From positions 34,145 through 98,144 of the forward strand of contig JAAXGX010000197.1 of the NCBI GenBank assembly GCA_012271165.1: a DNA stretch of 64,000 nt, read 5' to 3'. Position 1 is the first letter of the stretch, and each line of letters opens with the position of its first letter. Positions 12,959-53,735 of the stretch are shown here, in pieces. The notes under the pieces were generated by a model that was not told the DNA's origin, ran no database searches, and saw nothing but the letters and a program-made list of their open reading frames with translations. The DNA comes from Vicinamibacteraceae bacterium. Lineage in GTDB: Bacteria; Acidobacteriota; Vicinamibacteria; Vicinamibacterales; UBA8438. The position numbers and the translations under genes were made by a program.

Positions 12959-13106
12959 CGCCCGAGGCGCGCCTCGGCGGGAGCGGCGCGGGGCGTAGGG
13001 GTCCCCGCAAGCGGACGCCGGGGGCTTGGGGCGCAGCCCCATCTAGAGGACGCCGGGGGTTCGGGGCGTAGCCCCGTCTGATTGAAGGGGCGCAGCCCCG
13101 TCTGAA
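12959..13106 (+). repeat. GC-rich structured intergenic repeat: one full unit plus two partial 3' sub-repeats
   Basis: The sequence ...gcgcgcctcggcgggagcggcgcggggcgtaggggtccccgcaagcggacgccggggg...ggggcgcagcccc[ag]tct[ag]a matches the units at 15860-15950 (reverse) and 53551-53735. Confidence 0.85.
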
Positions 13107-21911: not shown

Positions 21912-23435
21912 GTGCCTGCGGTGCTCCTCGCCTGGATTGGTCAGACCGACCTCGACTGCGCGGCGGGGAAGCGGCAAGGCACAGGTCCCATTGCCAGCGT
22001 CGTAGCGGCCCGCGCCTTCGACGCGCTGGTGCTCCTCTCGAACTACGCAGCCGAACGAAACCGGCGGTTCACCCACTGGCTGACCGGGGCGGGCTCACCT
22101 CCCGTTCACCTCCGGTCGGAGCCCTTCGACGATCCGACCGACTATGGAGCGATCCACGACGCGGCCGTCCGGGCACTCGATTTCACCCGGGAGACGTACG
22201 GTGCGGACGCGGACCTGGCGGTACACGTCAGCCCCGGGACGCCCGCCATGCAGGCGGTCTGGGTCCTGCTTGCCAAGACCCGCTATCCCGCCGAGCTGAT
22301 CCAGTCGCACGCGCAGACCGGCGTCCGCACGGTGTCCGTGCCGTTCGACATCGCCGCCGAGTACGTGCCGGCGCTGCTGCGGGAAACGGACGAGAAGCTC
22401 GCCCGCCTGAGCGCGGGCCTGCCGCCCGCATCCCCCGCACTCGAACGGATCATCGGCCGGAGTCCGCTGATGGTGCGCGCGAGGACACGCGCGCAACGGG
22501 TGGCGCCGCACGATGTCACCGTCCTGATCGAGGGAGAGTCCGGAACCGGCAAGGAGCTGTTCGCGCGGGCGATCCACACCGGGAGCCGCCGCCTGCGCGG
22601 CCCGTTCGAGGAAGTCAACTGCGGCGCCCTGCCGGACGGACTTGTCGAGTCGCTGCTCTTCGGCCACGAGCGGGGCGCGTTCTCCGGCGCGGACCGCACC
22701 CGCGCCGGACACTTCGAGGCTGCGTCCGGCGGCACGCTCTTTCTGGACGAGGTCGGGGAGCTTCCGCTGGCCGTGCAGGTGAAGCTCCTGCGCGTGCTGC
22801 AGGAGAGAACCGTCCGCAGGCTCGGATCAGACCGCGACATCGCCGTCGACGTCCGGATCATCGCCGCGACGAACCGCGACCTGCGGGCGGAGGTTGCAGC
22901 CGGCCGGTTCCGGGAAGACCTCTTCTACCGGGTCGCCACCGGCGTGATCCGGCTGCCGTCTCTCCGTGAGCGCCCGGGCGACCTGACGCCGCTCATCGAT
23001 CACTTTCTGGCCGCGGCGAACCGCAAGTTCGCCGACCAGCCAGGTGTCGAGCAGAAGACCCTTTCTCCCCCGGCAAGAAACCTTCTGCTGCGGCACGCGT
23101 GGCCCGGCAACGTCCGCGAGCTCCAGGCGACCATCGATCGGCTCGTGCTGTGGGCGCCGAATCCAGCCGTCACCGCGGACGATGTGCAGGAGGAGCTGCT
23201 GGCGACCGTCCGGGATGCCCCGGCCGATCTCCTGGGCCGCCCCCTTGGCAACGGCCTCGAGCTCCCGAAACTCGTGGCCGATCTGGCGCGCCACTACCTC
23301 GAGCGCGCTCTCGCGGAAGCGGCCGGGAACAAGACGCGCGCCGCGGAGCTGGTCGGCTTGCCAAGCTATCAGACGTTGACGAACTGGATGAACCGCTACC
23401 AGGTGAAGGTGCCCGTCGGGAAGCGCCGACGATGA
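21912..23435 (+). CDS. sigma-54-dependent transcriptional activator with RtcR-like (CARF-type) N-terminal sensor domain
   Basis: The start is GTG. The N-terminus [31 protein letters not shown] aligns by eye with E. coli RtcR YLIHITTGTHVAQICWFLLAEARYLPARLIQS. The AAA+ domain has [14 protein letters not shown] (22674-22691) and FLDEVGEL. The C-terminus has a Fis-type HTH ([23 protein letters not shown]). Confidence 0.85.
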
Positions 23436-23451
23436 TGGCACGGACGTTGCT
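23436..23451 (+). promoter_or_regulatory. sigma-54 (-24/-12) promoter P1
   Basis: TGGCACGgacgTTGCT fits the consensus TGGCACG-N4-TTGCW exactly. It lies 15 nt upstream of the conserved ATG at 23466. Confidence 0.75.
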
Positions 23452-23465
23452 ACGTAGGTGTGACG

Positions 23466-25175
23466 ATGCCGGATGAACAGCAGGACCGCGCCACCAGGGC
23501 GCCGCTGATTACCGCGTTCGAGATCGAGAACTTCAAGGGGATCGGCCGGCCCGTCCGGGTCGATCTGCGGCCCCTCACGCTGCTCTTCGGGAGCAACAGC
23601 GCGGGCAAGAGCACGATCCTCCATGCGCTGTGCTACGCCCACGAGATCCTGAGCCACCGCAACGTGGATGCGCATGCGACGGTGCTGGGCGGAGACCAGA
23701 TCGATCTGGGGGGCTTTCCCAACTTCGTCCACGGGCATGACCCGAAGCGCAAAGTGCGGCTTCGCTTCGAGTTGGACATGCGTGGTCGAGATTTGCCCGA
23801 GCTCGCCGGGCTGTATTCCGCCTCCGCGTGGGAGTTCGACGAACCTCCCCTCGTCGGTGAGTCGGCCTGGGTGGAGCTCGTGGCCGAGTGGAAGGCGGGA
23901 GTGGCGATCGTCGGAAGCTACATCGTGGGACTTGACGGAAGAACCGTCGGACGCATTGGTGCCGGGGATGGTATCGAGGCCGAACTGGTAGTCAACCTGT
24001 CGCATCCGTTGTTGGAGCGGGAGAAACGGGACGTGGCGAACGCCCTGTCAGGTACAACGAGCCAGGTAGGCGAAGGCCCCGCGTCGGAGCCGTATGGCGG
24101 GGAGTCTCAACGCTTGAAGGTGCTCTTGGGGTCCGCACTACCAAATCTTGATCGACATCTGGAGATCGACGCTGAGAGTTGGGACGATGACGAACTGCGG
24201 AGGCTCCAATACCGAGTCTCGATGCTGCTCGTGGGCGTGGGTCGCCTCTTGCGGCAAGAGGTGGCGACTCTCAGATACATTGGTCCACTGCGCGATTTGG
24301 AGTCCCGAGATGACCTGAGGCGCGGGAACCGCGGACCGTTGGCGGACGAATTCGTGCAAGAGCTGTTCTATGAGACCGTACCGCCTCCTCGGCGTTGGGC
24401 GAATGGCACTGCGGCTTGGGAGCTCCTGAACGAGAGTGCCCGGCACAACACCGAGGTCGTTCGCGATACGAGCCGCTGGTTGTCGCATGCGGATCGGCTC
24501 GATACCGGCTACGAGCTGCGCGTGCGGACCGTCGTGGAGTTGCCAGGAGACGAACCGCTGGTGGCCGGCATTCTGGATTCGAGGCAATTCAAGACAACGC
24601 GTGCCGGATCGGATCGGCCGGAGCCCGAAGCGAATCAGTCACCCAGCGAGATTTTGAGGGCCGCGGATCCGTCTCTGGTTGATGCGCTCGTCGATAGGAT
24701 CAGGAACGGCGTTCGCAGCCGAGTCGAACTCGTGTCGACCCGGATCGACCGGCCCGTGCGGACATTCGACGTCGGCGTCGGTATCTCGCAGCTCCTCCCG
24801 GTCGTCGTCGCCGCGCTCGATCCGAATCGCCCGACGATTACCGCCATCGAGCAGCCGGAACTCCACGTCCATCCCAGATTGCAGGTCGAGCTCGGTGATC
24901 TGTTCGCGCAGCGGGCCGTCAAGGGCGGGATTTTTCTCATCGAGACCCACAGCGAGCACCTCTTGCTGCGGCTCATGCGGCGCATGCGGCAAACCAGCGA
25001 CAAGACGTTGCCCGAAGGCGCCCCCGGATTGCTTCCGCAGGACGTCGCAGTGCTCTTCGTCGAGCCGGACGGCAGCGAGACATTGGTCCGAGAAATGCCG
25101 CTAAACGAACGCGGCGAACTGGTGAAGGCGTGGCCAGGGGGCTTCTTCGAGGAAGACTTGCGCGAGATCTTCTGA
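23466..25175 (+). CDS. ABC/SMC-type ATPase with DUF3696-like C-terminal tail (cassette 1)
   Basis: The ORF track starts at GTG 23460. I prefer the ATG at 23466 because it is conserved in cassette 2 and lies downstream of the predicted sigma-54 transcription start. The motifs are Walker A GSNSAGKST, YIGPLR, ITAIEQPELHVHP, ETHSEH and WPGGFFEE. Confidence 0.85.
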   Translation: MPDEQQDRATRAPLITAFEIENFKGIGRPVRVDLRPLTLLFGSNSAGKSTILHALCYAHEILSHRNVDAHATVLGGDQIDLGGFPNFVHGHDPKRKVRLRFELDMRGRDLPELAGLYSASAWEFDEPPLVGESAWVELVAEWKAGVAIVGSYIVGLDGRTVGRIGAGDGIEAELVVNLSHPLLEREKRDVANALSGTTSQVGEGPASEPYGGESQRLKVLLGSALPNLDRHLEIDAESWDDDELRRLQYRVSMLLVGVGRLLRQEVATLRYIGPLRDLESRDDLRRGNRGPLADEFVQELFYETVPPPRRWANGTAAWELLNESARHNTEVVRDTSRWLSHADRLDTGYELRVRTVVELPGDEPLVAGILDSRQFKTTRAGSDRPEPEANQSPSEILRAADPSLVDALVDRIRNGVRSRVELVSTRIDRPVRTFDVGVGISQLLPVVVAALDPNRPTITAIEQPELHVHPRLQVELGDLFAQRAVKGGIFLIETHSEHLLLRLMRRMRQTSDKTLPEGAPGLLPQDVAVLFVEPDGSETLVREMPLNERGELVKAWPGGFFEEDLREIF

Positions 25176-26107
25176 TGCCGCTGCTCGCCGACTACGCCAT
25201 CACGCCCGACGTGTTCGATGTGGCCTCGTACTCGAGCTCGGGCGAGTGTGAGGCCCGCTTGGACAACATCCGGCAAGTCATGCTCACCGAGGGGGTCGTT
25301 CGCGACTTCCGCGATGGGGAGTGGCATGCCACTTTCAAACCCGACGCGCGTCAATGGCACCGTCGAGGCGCGGAGCTCGTCAAGAAGCTGGCCACGCAGG
25401 GACGGCTCGTTCCGTATCCGCCGGCGCTGCCCGATCCGCCCCTGAACGATCGAGACTGGTGCGCCGAGGCCCTGGCGACCCACGAGCGGAGGCCGCTCAC
25501 CGGCGGCGTGATCGTGACGGAGTCGGTCAAGGACTGCTACCGGAACGAGCAGGCGGTCGCCCGCATCGACCGGTTGCCGAGCGCACCGTGGTGGGCTGCG
25601 AGAAGCCCGTCAGTCCGGCTGGCCCGGACCCTTGCCGAATACGAGACGCATCTCGATCCGATCCTGCGCTGTTCCAACTCGCTCATGTTCATCGATCCGC
25701 ATCTGGACCCCGCCAAGCCGAGGTACGGAGGATTCGGCACGCTCCTGCAGCGCGCCGGACTGAGGACGCCCGCGCCACGAATCGAGATCCACCGTGTGTG
25801 CTATGAGGGCGCTGGTCGAGGCCGGTGGTTCCCGGATTTCGGACCCGCGTTCCGTGGTGCTCTGACCGAATCGTTGCGCGTCGCCGGTCTCACCGCAACC
25901 GTTCACATATGGGACGATTTCCACGATCGCTACCTGATCAGCAACCTCATCGGAATCTCGTTGCCGAACGGCTTCGATACCTCCAGCGCCCCCGCTACCG
26001 TTACGACATGGCCTCGACTCGGAAGGAGAGACCGTGACGATATACAGCGGGAGTTCGATCCGGCCGCCCGACGACATGCTCTGCGAGACTGCTTCGAGGT
26101 TCCATAA
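25175..26107 (+). CDS. uncharacterised partner protein of cassette 1 (DPH ... H-x-R-Y motif family)
   Basis: The start MPLLADYAITPDVF comes from a TGATG stop/start overlap. It is homologous to 28663-29610 through shared blocks ([DE]YA[IV].PD, F[IV]DPH..P, H[DN]RY[LI][IL][ST]). Confidence 0.75.
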   Translation: MPLLADYAITPDVFDVASYSSSGECEARLDNIRQVMLTEGVVRDFRDGEWHATFKPDARQWHRRGAELVKKLATQGRLVPYPPALPDPPLNDRDWCAEALATHERRPLTGGVIVTESVKDCYRNEQAVARIDRLPSAPWWAARSPSVRLARTLAEYETHLDPILRCSNSLMFIDPHLDPAKPRYGGFGTLLQRAGLRTPAPRIEIHRVCYEGAGRGRWFPDFGPAFRGALTESLRVAGLTATVHIWDDFHDRYLISNLIGISLPNGFDTSSAPATVTTWPRLGRRDRDDIQREFDPAARRHALRDCFEVP

Positions 26108-26194
26108 GTAGACTTCAGCGCTGGCCAGATATTGAACCCTGTTAACCGGACGAACCGCTACCGTATGATGCTCGGCGAAGTGACTCGCAGATGA

Positions 26195-26210
26195 TGGCGC
26201 GCCCTTTGCT
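26195..26210 (+). promoter_or_regulatory. sigma-54 (-24/-12) promoter P2
   Basis: TGGCGCGccctTTGCT has one mismatch to the consensus. Its spacing to the conserved ATG at 26225 is the same as for P1. Confidence 0.65.
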
Positions 26211-26224
26211 CGATGAGTGTGACG

Positions 26225-28663
26225 ATGCCGGATGAACACAATCGCCGTACCGAGGCCGAGCGGTCGAGGCCGCTTGCGGAAGCCCCGGGCGATGGGGTAG
26301 GGACCGGAGACTCGGCGTCGCCGGGGAGGTCGTCGCTCATTACCGCCGTCGAGATCGAGAACTTCAAGGGGATAGGCCGGCCGGTCCGCGTAGATCTACG
26401 CCCGATCACGCTGCTCTTCGGGCGCAACAGCGCCGGCAAGAGCACGATCCTCCACGCGCTCTGCTACGCACACGAGATCCTGAGCCATCGCTCTGTTGAT
26501 GCCCGCAAGACCGAGCTTGGGGGCGACCAGATCGACCTGGGCAGCTTCCACACCTTGGTCCACGGGCACGATCGGGACCGGACTGTCCGGCTGCGCTTCG
26601 AGTTGAACCTCGAGAAGTGGCGGGTACCCGATCCGCTGTGGGACAAGATCGATTCTCCCATCGAGATCGATGGGATGGGTGACTCCGGACTTACGGAACT
26701 GTCAGGAACGGTCAAGACTGGATGGGTGGAGCTGAAGGTCAACGGGCGACACGGGCGGCCTGAGTTGGTCAGCTACGAGGTGGGCGTCAATGGTGCGCTG
26801 GTCGGCCGCTTTCTCGCGACCGACAGAGCACGAACAGTGCTGGAATTCAACTCGGCACATTCCTTGCTGCACGTTGCGTTTCGGCCGCCTCGCCCGTTTG
26901 CGTCGACCATGGGGGCGCCGGAGCGAGAAGTGTCGGCCGGCCATCAGGGATCCAACGCAGACCGGGTGCGTGAAGCAGCCGGCCCGAAGCCCGACGACTC
27001 GCAGCCGTGTCGCGTGACCGTGCACGAGCTAGCCGCTCCCTTGCCGTATTGGCAGGAGCTCTTGCGCTTCGATGAGCGTGAATTGGAACGTGGTGTCGAC
27101 TACGTCGATGTGCCGCACTTCAGCGTGCTGGCGTCGGCCCTGCTCGTCGGCATCGGGCATGACCTGCAGAGCGAGTTGGCTGCGTGGCGATACATCGGCC
27201 CGATCCGCAATCTGCATCCACACCGCGACGTCAAGTCCCGGACACCCGACATTTCGCAATGGGTCGACGGATCGGCCGCCTGGACGCACCTTCTTGGCAG
27301 CGCCGGTCCGGGACTGATCGATGAGGTAAGCGCCTGGCTTGCGCGCGCCGACCGGCTCGACACCGGCTATGCGCTGCGTGCCCGGTCCATCCTGAGAATC
27401 AGCGAAGGAGATGCGAAGCTGGCCTCTGCGATGCGAGAGTACCATCAGCTCAAGAAGAGGTTCGGAAGTGCGGGCGGAGCAGTCGACCTTGACGCCTGGG
27501 TACGTCAGCAGGCAGAGAACCTCGTCGGCAGCGTGGAGGGTGCGATACGCGTCGCTACGGCCATGTGCCGCCAGATGCGGGCGCGATTCGCCGACGTCAC
27601 GAGAGTTGATCAGGCCGACTACCTCGAGGTCGAGGTGCAGGAGGCCGCGCAAGGGACGGAATTGGTCGACCGGTACCGGCAGCACCTGTGCCATTGGGGA
27701 TCTGTGGACGCGATCGAGGTGCGGATCAAGGCGCGTAGCAACGACGAGATCCAGATTCCTGCAACATGGCCATCCGAGGACCACCACCGTCTGGCTGAGA
27801 TAATCGCCAGGCTGGATGGACGCGACAAGTACCGCGAGGAGATACGGCGGCTCAAAGCCAAGGATGATGACTCTGCGGAACTGCTCGCGGAGTGTGATCG
27901 CAGGCTTGCCGAGCTCTCTGGCGATGATCAGTCTGGAGACGAAGTGCTCGAAGCGAAGGTCCTGATCGAGAACGTGAGGGCCAAGACCAGGGAGATGGCG
28001 GCTGTCTATGCCGCTGGCGGGAACGTCGAGTGGAGCGAGACGCAACTCAAAGTGTCCGGCATCGACGAGCTCGAGGCACGCGTGGAGCTGACGCGGAAGG
28101 ACTATCGCCAAGTGGCCGGACTCGTCGCCAAGATGGAACGACGCGACTTCACGTCGGCGGAGCTCGACGAGCTCGCCGCAGCCGTTGGGGCCAGCCCGCG
28201 TGAGCGAGAGCTCCAGCTCGTTACCAACGCGACGGGACTGCCTGTATGGACATCTGACATCGGCACTGGCATCTCCCAGATCCTGCCCGTGGTCGTTGCT
28301 GCCCTCGATCCCGATCGTCCCGGAATCACCGCCATCGAGCAGCCCGAGCTGCACGTCCATCCCAAGATGCAGGTGGAGCTGGGTGACCTCTTTGCGCAAC
28401 GCCTCGACCAGGGCGGAGTCTTCCTCATCGAGACCCATAGCGAGCACCTGATGCTGCGCCTGCTGCGCCGCATCGAGGAGACACACAGCGGGGAACTGCT
28501 GGACGGAAAGCCGCCCCTGAGGCCGGAGCAGGTTTCCGTCGTGTTCGTGGAGCAGATCGACGGTGAAGTCAGGACTACGCCGCTACGGATCGACGAAACG
28601 GGCGAATTCAAGGACCGCTGGCCGCACGGGTTCTTCCACGAGCGTGCCGATGAGCTCTTCTGA
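26225..28663 (+). CDS. ABC/SMC-type ATPase with DUF3696-like tail and a long charged helical insertion (cassette 2)
   Basis: The ORF track starts at 26213, and the conserved ATG is at 26225. The motifs are Walker A GRNSAGKST, YIGPIR, ITAIEQPELHVHP, ETHSEH and WPHGFFHE. It is about 250 aa longer than the cassette 1 ATPase. Confidence 0.85.
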   Translation: MPDEHNRRTEAERSRPLAEAPGDGVGTGDSASPGRSSLITAVEIENFKGIGRPVRVDLRPITLLFGRNSAGKSTILHALCYAHEILSHRSVDARKTELGGDQIDLGSFHTLVHGHDRDRTVRLRFELNLEKWRVPDPLWDKIDSPIEIDGMGDSGLTELSGTVKTGWVELKVNGRHGRPELVSYEVGVNGALVGRFLATDRARTVLEFNSAHSLLHVAFRPPRPFASTMGAPEREVSAGHQGSNADRVREAAGPKPDDSQPCRVTVHELAAPLPYWQELLRFDERELERGVDYVDVPHFSVLASALLVGIGHDLQSELAAWRYIGPIRNLHPHRDVKSRTPDISQWVDGSAAWTHLLGSAGPGLIDEVSAWLARADRLDTGYALRARSILRISEGDAKLASAMREYHQLKKRFGSAGGAVDLDAWVRQQAENLVGSVEGAIRVATAMCRQMRARFADVTRVDQADYLEVEVQEAAQGTELVDRYRQHLCHWGSVDAIEVRIKARSNDEIQIPATWPSEDHHRLAEIIARLDGRDKYREEIRRLKAKDDDSAELLAECDRRLAELSGDDQSGDEVLEAKVLIENVRAKTREMAAVYAAGGNVEWSETQLKVSGIDELEARVELTRKDYRQVAGLVAKMERRDFTSAELDELAAAVGASPRERELQLVTNATGLPVWTSDIGTGISQILPVVVAALDPDRPGITAIEQPELHVHPKMQVELGDLFAQRLDQGGVFLIETHSEHLMLRLLRRIEETHSGELLDGKPPLRPEQVSVVFVEQIDGEVRTTPLRIDETGEFKDRWPHGFFHERADELF

Positions 28664-29610
28664 TGCTTCGCGAATACGCGGTCGAGCCGGATCTCGTTCC
28701 GACATGGCTGGATCGCGAGACAGGCCGGTACTTCCTCGACAATTTCGGGCTCGGGACCCCACGCATCATGTCGCGGTATCCCCGCAAGCATTGGAAGAGG
28801 CTCGTCTGGGCGGCTTGGCGCGCGAGCAACGACGGCAAGGAAAACGAACAGACGCGGATGGAGACGTTGGTCCAGCGATTGTCAGAGGTCATGGTGAAAC
28901 GCCGGAATGCGGTTTGGGATCCGAGCCGGCCCTGGTTGGATAGTGCGGTCGAGGAACACATGAGAGCGCCGTTCCATGCCGTTCTCGCCCGCAGCAACCC
29001 GGCTGGTCATGATCGGATCCTGATTGCCGGCGACGTGGACGGTCGCACGCCGCTCTGGGCCGTTGATCATGGCGACACGATACCGAGGAAGGCCGAAGCA
29101 ATCGCTGGTGCCGTCGGAGACATGTTGCGAGTGGCGACCGACATCGTCTTTGTCGATCCGCACTTTGCCCCGCACCGGCGGCGCTTCTTCGACGTTCTCG
29201 ATGCATGCTTCGGAAAGTGTTTCGAGGGCAGGGTTGCCGATGTGCCCCGAATCCGACTCTTCAGTTCCACTCGGGATGAGAATGGCGAATTCGAGTTCTT
29301 CAAGAAAGAATGCCGCAATCGGCTACCAGTCACGCTGCCTGATGGCCAGGAGGCGACAATTCGCCGCCTGCGGGAGCGGCGGCCGGTCGGCGAGAAGCTT
29401 CACAACCGGTACATCTTGACGGAGCTTGGCGGCGTCAGCTTCGGCACCGGTCTGGATAGGGAGGAAGCGCTGGGTCACGCAACGGATGATCTGAACCTGC
29501 TCGGTCGTGACCAGTATGAAAGACGTTGGCGGCAGTACGCGAGCGAGCCGCCGGCGTTCGACCAGCCGGAAGCCCCGATTGTCGTCACCGGGACCGGCCG
29601 GATTTCCTGA
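28663..29610 (+). CDS. uncharacterised partner protein of cassette 2 (DPH ... H-x-R-Y motif family)
   Basis: The 315-aa ORF starts MLREYAVEPDL from a TGATG overlap. It has VFVDPHFAP and HNRYILTELGGVSFGTGLD (29401-29457). Confidence 0.75.
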   Translation: MLREYAVEPDLVPTWLDRETGRYFLDNFGLGTPRIMSRYPRKHWKRLVWAAWRASNDGKENEQTRMETLVQRLSEVMVKRRNAVWDPSRPWLDSAVEEHMRAPFHAVLARSNPAGHDRILIAGDVDGRTPLWAVDHGDTIPRKAEAIAGAVGDMLRVATDIVFVDPHFAPHRRRFFDVLDACFGKCFEGRVADVPRIRLFSSTRDENGEFEFFKKECRNRLPVTLPDGQEATIRRLRERRPVGEKLHNRYILTELGGVSFGTGLDREEALGHATDDLNLLGRDQYERRWRQYASEPPAFDQPEAPIVVTGTGRIS

Positions 29611-35006: not shown

Positions 35007-36005
35007 ATGGCCCGCAACCTGGTCTTGGCCGGCGTGCTGGCGCTGCTGCCCGCGGGTGCGCTCGCTCAACCGGACGCCGCGACGTTCCGCACGCCATGGG
35101 GCGACCCGGACCTGCAGCATGTCTGGACCAGCTCCACGCTGACGCCGCTGGAGCGGCCGGACGAGCTGGCGGGGAGGACGGCGTTGACGGCGGAGGAAGC
35201 GGCCGCATCGACGCAGTTGGAGCTGCGGCGCATCGACGGCGATCAGCGCGTGGGAGAGGGCCGGGGAGACCGGCAGGAGGACACGCCGGACGGGCGGACG
35301 GACGTCGGCCGCGCGTACAACGAGTTCTGGCGCGAGCGGGGCCGGATGCTGCGGCAGACGTCGCTGATCGTCGATCCGCCGGATGGACGCATCCCGTACA
35401 GGTCGGGCGGGCGGCCCGCCGAGTCCCCGTATCACGGCGGGGTGGGCGAGTACCCGGCCGGCCCGGAGACCCGCGGTCTGGCCGAGCGGTGCATCGCCTG
35501 GGGCAGCGCCGGGCCGCCGATGCAGCCGACCACCTACAACAGCAACTTCCAGTTGCTGCAGACTCCCGACCACGTGGCGATCGTCAACGAGATGATCCAC
35601 GACGTGCGCATCGTGCCGCTGGACGGCCGGCCGCACCTCGCGTCGGGCGTCCGCCAGTTGCTGGGCGATTCGCGGGGCCACTGGGAGGGTGAGACCCTGG
35701 TGGTCGTCACGGCCAACTTCACCGACAAGACGCGCTTTCGCGGATCCAGCCCGGACCTGCACCTGGTGGAGCGGTTCACACGGGTTGCTGCCGATACGCT
35801 GCTGTACGAGTACACCGTCGAGGACGAATCCGCCTGGACGCGGCCCTGGACCGCCGCCTGGCCGCTCAGCAGCCTGCGGTCGCAGCTCGGGGCGGAGCCG
35901 GGCAGCGTTGGCGCGCACCTGTTCGAGTATGCCTGCCACGAGGGCAACTACGGCATGACGAACCTGCTGGCCGGCGCCCGCGCCCTGGAACCCTCGCGCG
36001 ACTGA
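35007..36005 (+). CDS. secreted protein, CHEGN-motif family (paralog 3 of 6, short subtype)
   Basis: The start MARNLVLAGVLALL follows AAGGAGGA. It has the motifs TPWGDPDLQHVW, QTSLIVDPPDGRIP, ERCI, VRIVPLDGRPH, GDSRGHWEGETLVVVT and FEYACHEGNYG. Confidence 0.8.
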   Translation: MARNLVLAGVLALLPAGALAQPDAATFRTPWGDPDLQHVWTSSTLTPLERPDELAGRTALTAEEAAASTQLELRRIDGDQRVGEGRGDRQEDTPDGRTDVGRAYNEFWRERGRMLRQTSLIVDPPDGRIPYRSGGRPAESPYHGGVGEYPAGPETRGLAERCIAWGSAGPPMQPTTYNSNFQLLQTPDHVAIVNEMIHDVRIVPLDGRPHLASGVRQLLGDSRGHWEGETLVVVTANFTDKTRFRGSSPDLHLVERFTRVAADTLLYEYTVEDESAWTRPWTAAWPLSSLRSQLGAEPGSVGAHLFEYACHEGNYGMTNLLAGARALEPSRD

Positions 36006-38862: not shown

Positions 38863-40155
38863 CTACCAGCGGAACGCGCCGGTCGCCAGCGCGCCGGCCG
38901 CCATCAGGAGGGTGAGCGCGAACGCGTAGGGGATGGTCCGCCGCTGGTGGTCGCCGAGGTCGACGCCGGCCAGCCCGGTCAGCAGGAACGTCGCGGGCGT
39001 CAGCGGGCTGACGGGGAACCCCGTGGTCATCTGGCCCAGCAGCGCGGCCCGGGCCACCTCCACCCCCGGCACGCCGGCCACGCCGGAGGCTTCGGCGATC
39101 ACCGGCAGCACGCCGAAGTAGAACGAGTCGGGATCGAACAGCAGGCTGAGCGGCATCGCGGCCGCGGCCATCATCGGCGGCAGGTGGGTCGCCGCGCCGG
39201 ACGGCAGCGCCGCGACCAGGCTCTGTCCCATCGCCGCGAGCATGCCCGACTCGCGGAGGACGCCGGCGAAGACCCCGGCCGCCAGGATCAGCGCGACCAT
39301 CGACATGGCGTGGCTGCCGTGCCGCGCGATCTGCTCGCTCTGCGCCGCCGGCTGCGGGTGGTTGACCAGGAGCGCCACGGCCAGGGCGCAGATGAAGACC
39401 ACGGGCGGCGGCAGCGGCGCGAGCACCAGGGCCGCGAGCGTCGCGGCAGTCAGCAGCGCGTTGAAGGCCAGTCGCCGCGGGCGGACTTGCGCCGTCGCCG
39501 TGTTCGGCTCAGTGGCAGGCTCCCCCGCGGGCTGTCCGGCCGGCCGGAGGCGCCGCCGCTCGCAGTGGCCCATCCAGGCCGCGGCCGCGAGCACGCCCAG
39601 CAGGCCGAGTGCGAGCGAGGGCAGCAGGGGGCGGAAGAGCAGTCCGACCTCGACCTGGAGGGCGGCGGCCGCCCGCAGCATGGGGCCGCCCCAGGGCATG
39701 ATGTTCATCGTCCCGGCGGCGAGAGCCGCCGTGCACGCCAGCACGCGCCGGTCGAGGCCCAGACGGTCGTAGACGGGCAGCAGGGCCGGAATCACGATCA
39801 GGAACGTCGACGCGCCCGAGCCGTCCAGGTGGCAGAGCATGCTCACGACGGCGGTGCCGGCGACGAGGCGGACCGGATCGCCGCGGCAGCCGCGCACGAC
39901 GGCGCGGATCACCGGCGAGAACAGGCCGGCGTCGTTCATGACCCCGAAGTAGAGCACCGCGAAGCCCAGCATCGCGGCCGTGCCGGAGACGCCCTGGATG
40001 CCCGCCAGCGCGTACGTCCCGATATCGCGGCCGAAGCCGGCCAGCAGCCCCACGCCCAGGGGCACGACGACCAGGGCGACCAGGACGGACGTCAACCGGA
40101 AGAGGATCAGGACGAGGAGGGCGGCGATGGTGGCGGCGCCGAGTGCGGTCAGCAT
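38863..40155 (-). CDS. CitMHS-family (metal-citrate) transporter
   Basis: The 430-aa polytopic ORF has [19 protein letters not shown] and MNIMPWGGP motifs. Confidence 0.75.
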
Positions 40156-40179
40156 CGGGACGCCGCCACCGGGGCGCGC

Positions 40180-41883
40180 TCAGTCGCGCAGGGCGAAGGT
40201 CGACAGCGAGTGGCCGGAGATGATGGCCACGTACTGCCGGCCGTCCACCTCGTAGGTCACCGGGCCGTTGATGATCTGGCTGCCGAGGCTGGCCTTCCAC
40301 AGCAGGTCGCCGGTGCGGGCGTCCAGGGCCTGGAAGTAGCCGGACCGGGCGCCTGTGAACAGCAGGTCCGACGCCGTCGTGAGGATGCCGCTGCGGATGA
40401 CGTCCGTCATCTCGAACCGCCACTGCTCCTCGCCGGTCAGCGGATCCAGCGCGAGCACGGCCCCGCGGCCCCCGACCTCGGTCCAGTTGTTGATCGGACC
40501 GCGGGTCAGCGTGGGCGGGACGGGCGCATCCGGTACGGGCTGCCAGGTTCTCGGAAAGTCGAGGCGGCGGCCGGTGAAGGACCGGCCCGGGACGTAGACC
40601 TGCGGCGCGGCATCGAAGACCGTGGCGTAGTCCTCCCAGGCCGGGACGTAAAACAGCTCCGTCCGCGGGCTGTAGGATGGCGAGTACCAGTTCGTCGCGC
40701 CCGATATGCCCGGATACGTGGGCTCCCCGGCGGGCTGCGGGGTCTCGACCGGACGCCCGCTGTCGTCCAGCGCCTCGGCCCAGTTGACCGACACGAACGG
40801 GCGGCCGGTCAGAAAGCGGCCCGTCGCCCGATCCAGCACGTAGTAGAAGCCGTTGCGGTTGGCGAACAGCAGCACCTTGAAGAGCGTGTCGTTGCGGGTG
40901 ATGTCCGCCAGCACCGGAATCTGGACCGCGTCGTAGTCGTACGGGTCGTCCGGCGTGAACTGGAAGTGCCAGCGCAGCTCCCCGGTGTCGGCGTCGAGCG
41001 CCACCACCGAGCAGGAGTAGAGGTTGTCGCCCGGCCGCTGCGCCCGGTTGTAGTCGGGACCCGGGTTGCCGGTGCCCCAGTAGATCAGGTTCAGCTCCGG
41101 GTCGTACGAGCCCGTGAGCCAGGCTGCGGCCCCGCCGTGCATCCAGGCCTCCGGGTCGCAGTAGGTCTCCGGATTGGGCGGACACGGCTCCCAGGTCTCG
41201 TGACCCGGCTCGCCGGGTCCCGGAATCGTGTAGAAGCGCCAGACCTCCTCGCCGGTCTCGGCGTCGAGCGCCGCGATGAACCCGCGGATGCCCTGGTCGC
41301 CGCCCGTGGAGCCGACGATGATCTTGCCCTCGACGGCCAGCGGCGCCAGCGTGAAGGCGTAGGCCAGCGTCATGTCCGCCACCCGGGTGTTCCATATCTC
41401 CACGCCCGTCGTCGCGTCGATCGCCACGACGTGGGCATCCAGCGTGGCCATGAACACCTTGTCGCCGAGCACCGCCACGCCGCGGTTGTTCGCCCCGCAG
41501 CAGGCGAGGTGGTTGGGCGACGTCGGATAGCGGTAGATCCAGAACACGCGTCCGGTCCGGGCGTCGAGGGCGACGATGTCGTTCGGCCGCTGCGTCAGGT
41601 ACATCACCCCGTCGACCACGATCGGCGTCGTCTGCCACGGCCCCGCCACGGCGGTCTGGTACACCCACTGCAGCGCGAGGCCGCCGACGTTGTCGGGGTT
41701 GATCTGGTCGAGCTCGCTGTAGCGTTGGCCGAAGTAGTCGCCCGAGTAGGTCAGCCAGTTCTGCGGCTCGTCCGCCGTGCCGCGCAGGCGGTCGAAGGTC
41801 ACCTGCGCCGACAGCGGAGCGGACAGCAGGCCGACGAGAACCGTCCCGAGCACCGCGCGCCGGACCATCGCTCCTGAGGTCAT
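40180..41883 (-). CDS. PQQ-dependent alcohol dehydrogenase (methanol/ethanol family quinoprotein), periplasmic
   Basis: The start is MTSGAMVRR with a signal peptide. It has the vicinal Cys pair LACCGANNRG (41497-41502) and DPYDYDAV (D-Y-D at 40930-40938). Its ATG overlaps the stop of the upstream gene (ATGA). Confidence 0.85.
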   Translation of the reverse strand: MTSGAMVRRAVLGTVLVGLLSAPLSAQVTFDRLRGTADEPQNWLTYSGDYFGQRYSELDQINPDNVGGLALQWVYQTAVAGPWQTTPIVVDGVMYLTQRPNDIVALDARTGRVFWIYRYPTSPNHLACCGANNRGVAVLGDKVFMATLDAHVVAIDATTGVEIWNTRVADMTLAYAFTLAPLAVEGKIIVGSTGGDQGIRGFIAALDAETGEEVWRFYTIPGPGEPGHETWEPCPPNPETYCDPEAWMHGGAAAWLTGSYDPELNLIYWGTGNPGPDYNRAQRPGDNLYSCSVVALDADTGELRWHFQFTPDDPYDYDAVQIPVLADITRNDTLFKVLLFANRNGFYYVLDRATGRFLTGRPFVSVNWAEALDDSGRPVETPQPAGEPTYPGISGATNWYSPSYSPRTELFYVPAWEDYATVFDAAPQVYVPGRSFTGRRLDFPRTWQPVPDAPVPPTLTRGPINNWTEVGGRGAVLALDPLTGEEQWRFEMTDVIRSGILTTASDLLFTGARSGYFQALDARTGDLLWKASLGSQIINGPVTYEVDGRQYVAIISGHSLSTFALRD

Positions 41884-42968
41884 TGTCTTCCGTCCCCCGC
41901 CGCCTCGGTGGCCATCCGCTCGAGGTTGCGGTTGATCTCGAGGATGTGGCGGATGTCGTGGTTGCCCTCGTGGCAGCCGTACTCGTACAGCGGCCCCTCG
42001 ATCCTGACCATCGGCAGCTCCACCGTCCACCGGCTCACCCACGTCGTCGGGTCGCTGACCGTGAACTCGTAGTGAATCTGGTCGGGGCTGGCCGTGGGCG
42101 TGAAGCGCTCCACGACGTGCAGGGCGCCCGTGGCGCCGCGGAAGCGCCGCCGCTCGGCGTAGTTGCGCGTCTCGATCACCAGCGTGTCGCCTTCCCAGCG
42201 CCCGCGCGAGTCGCCGGGGAACTGGCGGATCCGGTCGGAGATGTGCGGGCGCCCGTCGAGCGGGACGATGCGCGGCGGGTTGTTGGCCATCTCGGTGTGC
42301 ACCACGATGTGGTCCGGGGTCTGGAAGATCTGGTGGATGTCGTTGTACGACGGCGGCATCATCGGCGGTCCCTCGTGCCCCCAGGTGATGCACCGCTCGC
42401 TGTGCGGCCGGGTCTCGTGGCTGTCGAACACCTCGCGCATCGCGCGAGCGTGCGCCGCCCGCGCGGCGCCCTGCGGCGTCAGGGCGGGCATCCGGCCGTT
42501 GCGCGGGTAGGTGATCAGCGATGTCCGGCGGGTCGACAGGCCCTTCGGCACCGGCGTGCGCAGCCAGATCTCGTTGTCGTAGTGGATGTGGTGGCGTTCC
42601 TCCCGCGTGCGGTTGCCCTGGAACTTGTAGCGCTCGAGCTCCTCCCGGTCCTCGAGCTCGATGAGGGTGAGGATTTCGCGCGCGGAGGGATCGACGCCCG
42701 CTGCCGTGAGCGTGTCCTGCAGGTAGGCCCACTCCTCCTCGGTGAAGAACTCCTTGTCGGCCAGATGATCGGGCCGCTCGAGCGGCGTGAAGGTCTGGGT
42801 CGTCCAGTACCCCTGCAGATCGGGTCGGCCGTCGGGGGTGCGCTGGAACGCCTGCTCCGCTGTCCCGTCCGGGGCGGGCTGCGCCTGATTCTGCGCGGAT
42901 GCCGGGACCGGCGCCAGGAGCCCGACGGCGACGACTGCTGCCAGCGCGATACGAGCGGCGTGGCTCAT
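41880..42968 (-). CDS. secreted protein, CHEGN-motif family (paralog 4 of 6, long subtype)
   Basis: The start MSHAARIALAAV follows AGGGAGGA. It has the motifs RTPDGRPDLQGYW, RTSLITYPRNGRMP, ERCI, PRIVPLDGRPH, GDSRGRWEGDTLVIET and YEYGCHEGNHDIRHILEINRNLER. Confidence 0.85.
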   Translation of the reverse strand: MSHAARIALAAVVAVGLLAPVPASAQNQAQPAPDGTAEQAFQRTPDGRPDLQGYWTTQTFTPLERPDHLADKEFFTEEEWAYLQDTLTAAGVDPSAREILTLIELEDREELERYKFQGNRTREERHHIHYDNEIWLRTPVPKGLSTRRTSLITYPRNGRMPALTPQGAARAAHARAMREVFDSHETRPHSERCITWGHEGPPMMPPSYNDIHQIFQTPDHIVVHTEMANNPPRIVPLDGRPHISDRIRQFPGDSRGRWEGDTLVIETRNYAERRRFRGATGALHVVERFTPTASPDQIHYEFTVSDPTTWVSRWTVELPMVRIEGPLYEYGCHEGNHDIRHILEINRNLERMATEAAGDGRQ

Positions 42969-43079
42969 CTGATCCTCCCTCGGCTGCGGCCGACTGGCCG
43001 CATGGATACGGAGCATGACGTGAGGCGGGAGCGGTGCGCGGCGCGCCGGACCGTCCGGCGCGCCGCGCACGAAGCGGAT

Positions 43080-44162
43080 CTACTTGCCTTCGGCGGCGGC
43101 GGCGGCGGCGGCAGCAGCGGCGGCCTCGGCCGCCATCCGCTCGAGGTTGCGGTTGATCTCCTGGATGTGGCGGATGTCGTGGTTGCCCTCGTGGCAGCCG
43201 TACTCGTACATCGGCCCCTCGGTCCTGATCATCGGGACTTCGGCGCTCCACGAGCTTTGCCACGTCGTCGGATCGTCGATGGTGAACTCGTAGTGGATCT
43301 GGTCCTCGGCGACGCGCGTGAAGCGCTCCACGACGTGCCGGAACTGGTTCGAGCCGCGGTAGTTCCGGCGCGCGATGAAGTTCTTCGACTCGACCACCAG
43401 CGTGTCGCCCTCCCACCAGCCGCGCGAGTCGCCGTTGTACTGGCGAATGTCGTCCGCGATGTGCGGGCGCCCGTCGAGCGGGATGATGCGGGGCAGGCCG
43501 GTGCCCAGCTCGGTGAAGACGACGACGTGGTCCTTCGTCTGGAAGATCTGGTGGATGTCGTTGTACGACGGCGGCAGTATCGGCGGCCCCTCGTGCCGCC
43601 ACGCGATGCAGCGCTCCGGCAGCGGCCGGGTCTCGTAGCTGTCGAAAACGTTGCGCATCGCGGCCTCGTGGGCGATGCGCGCGGCGCCCGCGGGCGTCAG
43701 GGGCGGAATCCGGCCGTTGGGCGGGTCCGTGATCAGCGACGTCCGGCGGCTCGACAGGCCCTTGGGCACGGGCGTGCGCAGCCAGACCTGGTTGTCGTAG
43801 TGCACGTACGACGCGTCGCGGTTCTCCTGATACAGCGCCTCTTCGCGCTCCGCGTCGTCCTCGATGGCGATGGCGTCACGCCGCAGCGGATCGACGCCTT
43901 CGGCCGTGAGCTGCCGCTGCAGCTCGGCGACCTCCTCCTCCGTGAAGAACGCCTTGTCGCCGAGGTGCTCCGGACGCTCGACGGGCGTGAAGGTCTGAGT
44001 CGTCCAGTAGCCTTGCATGTCCGGGTGGCCGTCCGGCGTGCGCGGCATGGTCCACGCCGCGGACGCGTCAGTCTCGCCCTCGACCTGCGCGGCCGCGGAG
44101 ACGGGCGCCAGCAGCGTGATGACGACGAGCGCTGCCGATGCAGCAAGAGTGGAGTGCCTCAT
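43080..44162 (-). CDS. secreted protein, CHEGN-motif family (paralog 5 of 6, long subtype, poly-Ala tail)
   Basis: The start MRHSTLAASAAL follows GGGGAGGA. It has the same motif set as paralog 4. The C-terminus is EAAAAAAAAAAAEGK. Confidence 0.85.
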   Translation of the reverse strand: MRHSTLAASAALVVITLLAPVSAAAQVEGETDASAAWTMPRTPDGHPDMQGYWTTQTFTPVERPEHLGDKAFFTEEEVAELQRQLTAEGVDPLRRDAIAIEDDAEREEALYQENRDASYVHYDNQVWLRTPVPKGLSSRRTSLITDPPNGRIPPLTPAGAARIAHEAAMRNVFDSYETRPLPERCIAWRHEGPPILPPSYNDIHQIFQTKDHVVVFTELGTGLPRIIPLDGRPHIADDIRQYNGDSRGWWEGDTLVVESKNFIARRNYRGSNQFRHVVERFTRVAEDQIHYEFTIDDPTTWQSSWSAEVPMIRTEGPMYEYGCHEGNHDIRHIQEINRNLERMAAEAAAAAAAAAAAEGK

Positions 44163-53550: not shown

Positions 53551-53735
53551 GCGCGCACGGCGCGCCTCGGCGGCAGCGGCGCGGGGCGAAGGGGTCCCCG
53601 CAAGCGGACGCCGGGGGTTCGGGGCGCAGCCCCGTCTGAATGATGCCGCGCACAGCGCGCCTCGGCGGCAGCGGCGCGGGGCGAAGGGGTCCCCGCAAGC
53701 GGACGCCGGGGGTTCGGGGCAAAGCCCCGTCTGAA
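53551..53735 (+). repeat. GC-rich structured intergenic repeat, two tandem units (53551-53640 and 53645-53735)
   Basis: The units are near-identical: gc[gc]cgcac[ag]gcgcgcctcggcggcagcggcgcggggcgaaggggtccccgcaagcggacgccgggggttcggggc[ga][ca]agccccgtctgaa. Confidence 0.9.

Follow-up and report, generated by a model that had tools for sequence, protein, structure and literature searches.

We have analysed a five-gene block in a 64,000-nucleotide stretch of DNA from a Vicinamibacteraceae bacterium (assembly GCA_012271165.1, contig JAAXGX010000197.1, positions 34,145 to 98,144 of the forward strand), referred to here as the window. Between 21.9 and 29.6 kb, all on the same strand, the window encodes a sigma-54 activator followed by two gene pairs, ATPase 1 with partner 1 and ATPase 2 with partner 2. 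The partner is probably the effector subunit of a two-gene defence module that has an ABC ATPase of the Menshen NsnB/NsnC and HEC-03 type and lacks NsnA. This reading is based on homology, on the coupling of the two genes, on folds and invariant residues, and on the promoters, the linkage to the activator and the defence-island contexts in which the pairs are found. A first-pass annotation of the same DNA had taken the partners for effector or specificity subunits of the ATPases; the effector half of that proposal gains from a C-terminal domain of the phospholipase D (PLD) superfamily with invariant D...H-x-R residues, and a specificity subunit now appears less likely.

The partner family

The two partner genes lie at 25175..26107 (partner 1, 310 aa) and 28663..29610 (partner 2, 315 aa) on the + strand, where the first-pass annotation had placed them, and the four ordered blocks that it had described as common to both are all present in the translations and aligned in a joint alignment of 73 sequences (A1). 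It had also considered the proteins related despite their low similarity, and this is borne out by BLASTP (E 3e-8, 26% identity over the C-terminal 127 aa). Furthermore, comparison of the partner-1 and partner-2 subfamily profiles with hhalign gave a probability of 99.3% and an E-value of 4.4e-20 over 264 columns, in an alignment that spans residues 4-293 of partner 1 and 2-285 of partner 2 and includes the N-terminal YA..P[DE] block. Residues A8, P11, W95, W140, D174, P175, H250, R252 and F307 (partner 1 numbering) are invariant in 73/73 sequences of A1, and R151, Y253, G260, G266 and D268 are conserved in at least 95% of them. As had been anticipated, the partners are more divergent than the ATPases beside them (26% versus 41-58% identity).

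The partners had been described as outside any recognised Pfam family, and Pfam searches at E<=1 were indeed empty, as were those of NCBIfam, PADLOC and PHROG (E<=1 or 0.01), so that no profile search placed them in a curated family. A search of the PDB sequences with the family profile returned chance-level matches only (methylthioribose kinase at E 0.15 and LRRK1 at E 1.8), and no MITD1 or PLD sequence in the PDB matched the family at E<=10. Calling the family unnamed is therefore correct as far as curated names and models go; its architecture does have a precedent in the inPIN + PB-PLD1 class of NsnC (PMC12065111).

The C-terminal PLD-like domain

AlphaFold2, run with the family alignment, models partner 1 as two domains (pLDDT 93.3, pTM 0.88), a PIN-like N-domain at residues ~1-143 and a MIT_C/PLD-like C-domain at ~145-310, and by homology and alignment partner 2 has the same two-domain architecture. 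When the C-terminal half (~145-310) was compared with the PDB by Foldseek it fell in the PLD superfamily with a probability of 0.99-1.00. The best match was the MIT_C domain of human MITD1 (2ymb, 4a5z; TM 0.58-0.60 on the target). Other matches were the PLD3/PLD4 exonucleases, the PLD nuclease domain of SauUSI and the FAM83-type structure 4urj, together with lipid-type proteins, namely the Streptomyces and Pseudomonas phospholipases D, human PLD2, vaccinia F13 and phosphatidylserine synthase. At the level of sequence, none of the Pfam models PLDc, PLDc_2 and MIT_C matched the partners at E<=1.

The most conserved residues fall at defined places of this fold. The invariant Asp of F-[IV]-D-P-[HY] (D174) comes directly after strand 2 of the C-domain (169-173), and H-[D/N]-R-Y (H250-D251-R252) directly before strand 5 (253-256). 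These positions agree with the published description of the effector site of Menshen PB-PLD1, in which strand 2 is followed by an acidic residue and strand 5 is preceded by H-D-R (PMC12065111), and a site of the PB-PLD1/MIT_C type is thus present in the partner. In its spacing the motif is HKD-like, HxR(x)4[N/D/E]..G.....G.D, with H250-x-R252-x4-N257 in partner 1 and H247-x-R249-x4-E254 in partner 2, each followed by G..G.D. The key codons, all on the + strand, are 25694-25696 (D174), 25922-25924 (H250), 25928-25930 (R252) and 25976-25978 (D268) in partner 1, and 29155-29157 (D165), 29401-29403 (H247), 29407-29409 (R249) and 29455-29457 (D265) in partner 2. A PD-(D/E)xK reading of the 'DPH' block was also considered early on and was abandoned when the fold turned out to be that of PLD.

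The PLD superfamily is a mix of lipid and nucleic-acid enzymes and the MIT_C domain of MITD1 binds membranes, so a defence or abortive-infection module whose partner targets membranes, by binding or hydrolysing phospholipids and bringing about membrane collapse, has to be weighed. The structural neighbours MITD1 MIT_C, the phospholipases D, PLD2, vaccinia F13 and phosphatidylserine synthase are all in its favour. We nevertheless regard it as unlikely, since the nucleases PLD3/4 and SauUSI score equally well in Foldseek, the N-domain resembles the PIN folds of RNA/DNA nucleases, and the partners of related ATPases (NsnC, HEC-03B, AriB, PtuB) are nucleases. Moreover, no hydrophobic or amphipathic membrane segment was detected in the partners; the maximum Kyte-Doolittle hydropathy over 19 residues is 0.73 in partner 1 and 1.50 in partner 2, in line with the first-pass annotation, which had seen no transmembrane segment.

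The N-terminal PIN-like domain

The N-domain alone (residues 1-143) was modelled at pLDDT 80. Its top Foldseek match was the PIN-like structure 3ix7 (probability 0.92, TM 0.53-0.56), and other matches were the PIN domains of KHNYN, ZC3H12C, SMG6 and EST1A, the FEN/Taq 5'-nuclease domains, PRORP and VapC. Acidic residues are conserved near strand 1 and helix 1, at D/E6 (99%), D/E12 (89%) and D/E30 (81%), and neither the family alignment nor the model has a conserved acid after strands 3 and 4. With conservation confined to these three acidic positions, the domain is unlikely to have a complete PIN metal site; it is PIN-like by weak but consistent fold matches and probably inactive.

Arguments against an effector role

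Several observations weigh against the partner being a Menshen- or HEC-03-type effector. The canonical HKD motif, HxK(x)4D(x)6G(G/S)xN, is absent from the partners: Arg takes the place of the Lys in 73/73 sequences, and members of the partner-1 subfamily have N at position +7. The nearest solved relative, the MIT_C domain of MITD1, is known as a membrane-binding domain and not as an enzyme. All the Foldseek E-values of the N-domain are weak (0.07-1, on the pLDDT-80 model), the fold matches being consistent with one another. None of the PADLOC models for NsnC and for the partners of HEC-03 and PDC-M55 matches the partner proteins, and the comparison of the family with PB-PLD1 is one of described fold and motif. 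Finally, among 2.9 million viral contigs the partner family has four weak relatives, none of them of the partner-1 type, and phage records, from which the family is almost missing, point to no trigger.

Part of this evidence would also fit a partner that is a non-catalytic adaptor, sensor or specificity subunit, whose two domains would be inactive binding modules that recognise a phage component and leave the output to neighbours such as type I restriction-modification (R-M) or SIR2. The missing HKD Lys and the incomplete PIN acidic quartet agree with such a role, the module often lies within larger operons with nucleases of their own, and to our knowledge no enzymatic activity has been demonstrated for MITD1 MIT_C. 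The conservation argues the other way: even between very divergent family members D174, H250 and R252 do not vary, and D268 and R151 are retained in 97-99%, as is usual for an active site. In addition, no other effector gene is present in the window or in many other loci, and HEC-03 is self-sufficient, with both of its genes needed. An adaptor is on these grounds a very improbable description of the partner.

The ABC ATPases

ATPase 1 (23460..25175, + strand, 571 aa, likely true start ATG 23466) and ATPase 2 (26213..28663, + strand, 816 aa, likely true start ATG 26225) are NsnB/HEC-03-like proteins of the ABC type that match Pfam AAA_15, AAA_21 and AAA_23. Pfam DUF3696 is matched by ATPase 2 with 24.7 bits (cut-off 22) and by ATPase 1 with 21.2 bits, just below, and the DUF3696-type tail of both terminates in WP.GFF (WPGGFF in ATPase 1). 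With the PADLOC models, ATPase 1 matched NsnB (1.3e-38), PDC-M55A (2e-37) and the HEC-03 ATPase (8e-28), and ATPase 2 matched PDC-M55A (3e-40), NsnB (4.2e-39) and the HEC-03 ATPase (1e-28); the N-terminal regions gave weak matches to AriA (~1e-18 to 7e-18) and GajA (1e-9). Identity between the two ATPases is 41% in the N-terminal 400 aa and 58% in the C-terminal 150 aa, and an insert of ~245 aa (~residues 420-665) sets ATPase 2 apart from ATPase 1. The homologues vary in length between ~520 and 870 aa, and either partner subtype can be paired with a long or a short form. In two loci (L005 and L012) a long ATPase goes with a partner of the partner-1 type, the opposite of the pairing in the window.

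ATPase 1 has the Walker A motif GSNSAGKST and the Walker B region IEQPELHVHP. The Walker B dyad is E-Q, and not D-E, in 90/90 ATPase homologues adjoining partner genes (L009-L088); in the window its coordinates are 24837-24851 (IEQPE of ATPase 1) and 28325-28339 (ATPase 2). The signature motif of the window ATPases is G-x-G (GVG and GTG). Both features recall the peculiarities reported for NsnB, a Walker B E-N and GxG (PMC12065111). The E-Q dyad is a natural counterpart of the E-to-Q mutation classically used to render ABC ATPases hydrolysis-dead, and judging from these residues it suggests that ATP hydrolysis would be slow.

Coupling and genomic neighbours

In both pairs of the window the partner ATG and the stop codon of the upstream ATPase overlap by one base (TGATG). 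Conservation of this arrangement and of the neighbouring genes was followed in a census of 80 loci from species-representative genomes. The census was seeded from an alignment of the partner-2 subfamily (A3), which replaced the joint alignment A1, the latter being without a sufficiently conserved stretch; contexts of partner-1-type genes were sampled separately. The translational coupling to DUF3696-type ATPases on which the first-pass annotation had relied is essentially universal: the ATPase open reading frame (ORF) ends at -9 to +3 nt from the partner start in 75/76 partner genes with a recognisable N-terminus, the single exception being on a cut-off contig of 1.2 kb. Genes of the partner-1 type and the members found on Methylocella and Deinococcus plasmids show the same coupling. 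Of the two outcomes that the first-pass annotation had named as speaking against it, placement in a characterised family and homologs unlinked to such ATPases, neither was obtained.

The gene upstream of the ATPase was hsdS in 16/31 scanned cases, and an operon of the order activator-hsdR-hsdM-hsdS-ATPase-partner recurs across many phyla. On the Methylocella tundrae plasmid NZ_LR536452.1 the series is WYL regulator, hsdR, hsdM, hsdS, ATPase, partner (WP_134493230.1), SIR2 and DUF87, with the WYL-domain regulator in place of the CARF activator; the ATPase of this pair is WP_134493232.1. Another cultured host of the module is Deinococcus sp. AJ005, on its plasmid p96k (WP_151845320.1 with WP_151845319.1). 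Other neighbours were NACHT, ThiF-JAB, SAVED, SLOG, TIR, GmrSD, MNT-HEPN and further toxin-antitoxin pairs. The window itself and many other loci have the activator, the ATPase and the partner alone, without any other effector gene.

DUF262/GmrSD_N, the hallmark of NsnA, was found in 0/31 upstream and 2/23 downstream neighbours and nowhere in the window. One of the two downstream cases (L044) is a full-length enzyme of the GmrSD/HEC-06 type and the other (L047) matches NsnA only at 2e-6. Because of these counts, the family is an NsnA-independent two-gene module of defence islands, and full membership in Menshen, which we had also considered, is ruled out by the absence of NsnA.

In a recurrent variant (L001-L003, L031 and L095) a 1,270-aa SIR2_2 protein is encoded directly upstream of the pair, sometimes together with a 580-aa ABC ATPase; this second ATPase is present in L001 and L031 and absent from L095. 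Different phyla have this SIR2_2 variant, and the partner in it can be of either subtype; it may represent a larger system of four genes.

The activator and the sigma-54 promoters

The first-pass annotation had recognised the ATPase-partner pairs of this locus and had overlooked what precedes them, an RtcR-like CARF sigma-54 activator and two sigma-54 promoters. The activator (21912..23435, + strand, 507 aa) is an enhancer-binding protein with a CARF-like N-domain, a sigma-54 AAA+ domain and a Fis-type HTH. It matches Pfam Sigma54_activat (3e-68), AAA_lid_14 and HTH_8, and over residues 3-498 the PADLOC model RtcR_PspF2--CARF_AAA_HTH (E 8e-187); against NCBIfam RtcR it scores 342 bits, with a cut-off of 650. 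The same CARF-like N-domain is encoded within 9 kb upstream of the pair in 41/80 loci, either adjacent, or divergent, or with hsdRMS alone between.

A sigma-54 (-24/-12) promoter-like site, TGGCACggacgTTGCT (23436..23451, + strand), starts one base past the activator stop codon, and ATG 23466 of ATPase 1 comes 14 nt after its end. A second one, TGGCGCgccctTTGCT (26195..26210, + strand), has the same 14-nt distance to ATG 26225 of ATPase 2. Both were found by motif match, and the pattern was observed 2 times in the window against 0.04 expected. In related loci the motif has 45 occurrences on the operon strand, against 5 on the opposite one, and lies almost always directly past the activator gene and ahead of the ATPase or hsdR, and one locus (L009) has a second site ahead of its second ATPase. 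The placement one base past the activator stop (23433-23466 in the window, the second promoter region being 26192-26227) was also seen in the unrelated genomes of L009, L017, L024, L035, L037, L039 and L043. The -12 element is separated by 14 nt from the conserved ATG (ATGCCGGATGAAC); with so short a gap, the ATPase mRNAs are predicted to be nearly leaderless (in the window, with a start at about 23462), and the sites bound by the activator are expected within its own coding region.

The window module is a tandem duplication of the ATPase-partner pair. Both promoter regions have ~65 nt of upstream DNA in common, including the 11-mer GAACCGCTACC and the first ATPase codons ATGCCGGATGAAC, and the duplication therefore took the promoter along. 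The 11-mer GAACCGCTACC, at 23390-23400 and 26152-26162, is located ~45 nt upstream of each sigma-54 promoter and may belong to a binding site of the activator or of IHF, or be a mere trace of the duplication. Scans of 21.5-30 kb for terminators, sigma-70 promoters and inverted repeats gave nothing beyond chance, and no clear palindromic activator site.

RtcR-like CARF activators linked to R-M and not to rtcBA were noted in 2014 (PMC4012209), and such activators are known to head CoCoNuT/R-M 'superoperons' (PMC11090510). The regulatory principle is already known; new are the ATPase-partner cargo and the explicit placement of the promoters.

A regulator whose nearest relatives are CARF regulators of the RtcR type also raises a different reading of the operon, as one of stress response or nucleic-acid repair under a damaged-RNA sensor, with the partner processing ends in the manner of Tdp1 and the ATPase acting as a RecF/Rad50-like clamp. 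This ABC ATPase clade does resemble the heads of RecF, SMC and Rad50, and the PB-PLD1 class has Tdp1 among its structural relatives (PMC12065111). Against this, no rtcA or rtcB is found nearby, defence genes and toxin-antitoxin pairs make up the great majority of the neighbours, and RtcR-like activators were already known at the head of R-M and CoCoNuT defence operons. The cassettes, furthermore, are patchily distributed, deviate in GC and show duplication, shuffling and decay, as is typical of defence islands. We therefore give a repair function very little credence.

Distribution and turnover of the module

An exhaustive profile search (E<=1e-3) showed the partner family to comprise 3,285 clusters at 50% identity, and among the members listed almost all are ~300 aa long. 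The relatives of partner 1 at 60-87% identity number more than 1,300, and those of partner 2 form a more divergent set, with identities down to ~37%. In the collection of species-representative genomes the closest match belongs to an uncultured Vicinamibacteraceae bacterium (70% identity). The family is found in Acidobacteriota (Vicinamibacterales), Latescibacterota, Binatota (Binatia), Desulfobacterota, Planctomycetota, Pseudomonadota and Deinococcota, and also in Rokubacteria, Chloroflexota, Gemmatimonadota, Myxococcota, Accumulibacter/Burkholderiales, Leptospira and Omnitrophota. Plasmids of the cultured Methylocella tundrae, Deinococcus sp. AJ005 and Azotobacter chroococcum carry members as well, annotated merely as 'hypothetical protein' beside an 'AAA family ATPase'. 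A phage origin of the family was considered and rejected, because searches of PHROGs and of phage genomes found no match to the partners and the viral contigs held only the four weak relatives mentioned above.

Horizontal acquisition of the cassette is supported by a GC content of 0.63-0.65 in the five-gene block against ~0.70 in the flanks on either side and by the presence of the same cassette within different flanking DNA in other genomes. Soil-metagenome scaffolds with the same cassette encode a protein (P0121) identical to partner 2. In several Vicinamibacterales genomes (L013, L020, L032, L010) decayed cassettes with fragmented ATPase or partner ORFs were found, and in L016 the order of the two ATPase-partner pairs differs, all of which points to a rapid turnover of the module.

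Other features of the window

A GC-rich repeat, GGACGCCGGGGG[CT]TCGGGGC..AGCCCC.TCT, forms short tandem arrays at two distant sites (13013-13079 and 53552-53735) and, from its sequence, looks like a REP-type intergenic repeat. ARAGORN predicts a tRNA-Ser(GGA) at 35493-35580 on the - strand, and Rfam at gathering thresholds reported zero families in the window, tRNA included. GC content rises up to 0.78 between 36001 and 38000, with a negative GC skew (36-38 kb). In the region 39001-44000 the AT skew is strong, +0.26 at 39-40 kb and about -0.2 at 42-44 kb.

A model for the module

What can be said of complex formation, catalysis, substrate, trigger and ligand is inferred by analogy with related systems. 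In the model that we consider most likely, the CARF enhancer-binding protein, once activated by its ligand, would turn on the sigma-54 promoters of one ATPase-partner pair or several. The ligand might be, by analogy, RNA ends with a 2',3'-cyclic phosphate or a nucleotide signal. Both pairs of the window would be transcribed from their own sigma-54 promoters, and their expression would thus be ligand-inducible. The ATPase would assemble as an ATP-bound dimer or tetramer, and the PIN-like domain of the partner would dock on the paired DUF3696 tails, restraining the putative MIT_C/PLD-like phosphodiesterase domain (D174, H250, R252, D268). An infection cue would then alter the state of the ATPase, so that the effector is activated or released. 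An anti-restriction protein, as for PARIS and PrrC, is a plausible cue because the module is found so often behind hsdS. The effector would finally degrade nucleic acid, the most likely substrate, and the infection would be aborted.

A more ambitious version of this model is that the HxR MIT_C/PLD domain is a genuine enzyme licensed by a hydrolysis-impaired E-Q ABC clamp, and that the whole is an inducible second line of immunity, in which the CARF enhancer-binding protein senses RNA ends or a nucleotide signal of the infection and then activates the sigma-54 promoters that adjoin its own stop codon. We hold this to be possible, if rather doubtful. If true, it would be the first catalytic function for a PLD domain of the MIT_C type, found also in eukaryotic MITD1 and in BrxL of BREX, and would provide a tractable system to find the ligand of RtcR-like CARF domains that are not involved with Rtc.

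Some consequences follow already from the effector module as described. The family is abundant and has no curated model, so that current defence finders miss the partner. The NsnB/NsnC-type pair evidently functions free-standing, without a DUF262 sensor and commonly behind hsdS, and is therefore a simpler model for the control of effectors by DUF3696 ATPases and a candidate guard of type I restriction. With the invariant D...HxR site it can be tested directly whether PLD domains of the MIT_C type (MITD1, the C-termini of BrxL) are enzymes, and the tight arrangement of activator and sigma-54 promoter is suited to identifying the signals of RtcR-like CARF proteins outside RNA repair. The cultured Methylocella and Deinococcus strains are practical experimental sources of the module.

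Comparison with known defence systems

Menshen is among the closest known systems. The window ATPases have, as NsnB, a DUF3696 tail, a GxG signature and a Walker B glutamate followed by an amide (EQ here, EN in NsnB), and both systems are frequently associated with type I R-M. NsnC is defined by a PIN-like, probably inactive N-domain joined to a variable effector domain, its inPIN + PB-PLD1 class was described computationally, and in the AlphaFold3 models of Menshen the PIN-like domain is docked between two NsnB DUF3696 tails (PMC12065111). The partners correspond to this inPIN + PB-PLD1 class in their PIN-like N-domain, their PLD/MIT_C-like C-domain and the same positions of D and H-D/N-R. 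Gene order, right behind the ATPase, agrees with that of NsnC; the C-domain agrees by fold and motif, and a PIN-like N-domain is suggested by Foldseek matches that are consistent but have weak E-values of 0.07-1. In contrast to Menshen, there is no NsnA here (the DUF262/ParB sensor with a ParBDB domain), and the module is controlled by the CARF sigma-54 activator.

The closest experimentally validated relative of the module is HEC-03 (Hma-embedded candidate 3), an ABC ATPase with a PIN protein that protects against phages and requires both genes (bioRxiv 10.1101/2024.01.29.577857). Both are two-gene systems of an ABC ATPase and a PIN-containing partner, embedded in R-M-like systems. The difference is in the partner, a VapC-like PIN in HEC-03 and here a PIN-like domain without the full acidic quartet, fused to a PLD-like domain.

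PARIS (AriA/AriB), Septu (PtuA/PtuB) and Gabija share with the module the principle that an ABC ATPase oligomer restrains or regulates a nuclease, and PARIS, like PrrC, responds to anti-restriction proteins. Their effectors are Toprim/DUF4435 or HNH proteins and not PIN+PLD, and the ATPases have another tail and another Walker B; no match to Toprim or DUF4435, the domains of the AriB effector, was found in the partners. MITD1 MIT_C and the nucleases Nuc, PLD3/4 and SauUSI resemble the partner C-domain in the fold and in a single His motif at the edge of strand 5 followed by a Gly-rich turn. They differ in having HxK(x)4D where the partners have HxR(x)4[N/D/E], and the partners lack a MIT domain and are prokaryotic and ATPase-coupled.

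As for the regulation, the activator has the same CARF-AAA+-HTH architecture as the RtcR-like activators of R-M/CoCoNuT superoperons and likewise heads a defence operon of co-directional genes, in which type I R-M often comes next. Here, however, the cargo is one or more ATPase-partner pairs and not CoCoNuT/McrBC, and the sigma-54 promoters abut the activator stop codon. Compared with the RtcR regulon, activator architecture and promoters are alike, whereas the cargo here consists of ATPase-partner pairs or type I R-M instead of rtcBA.

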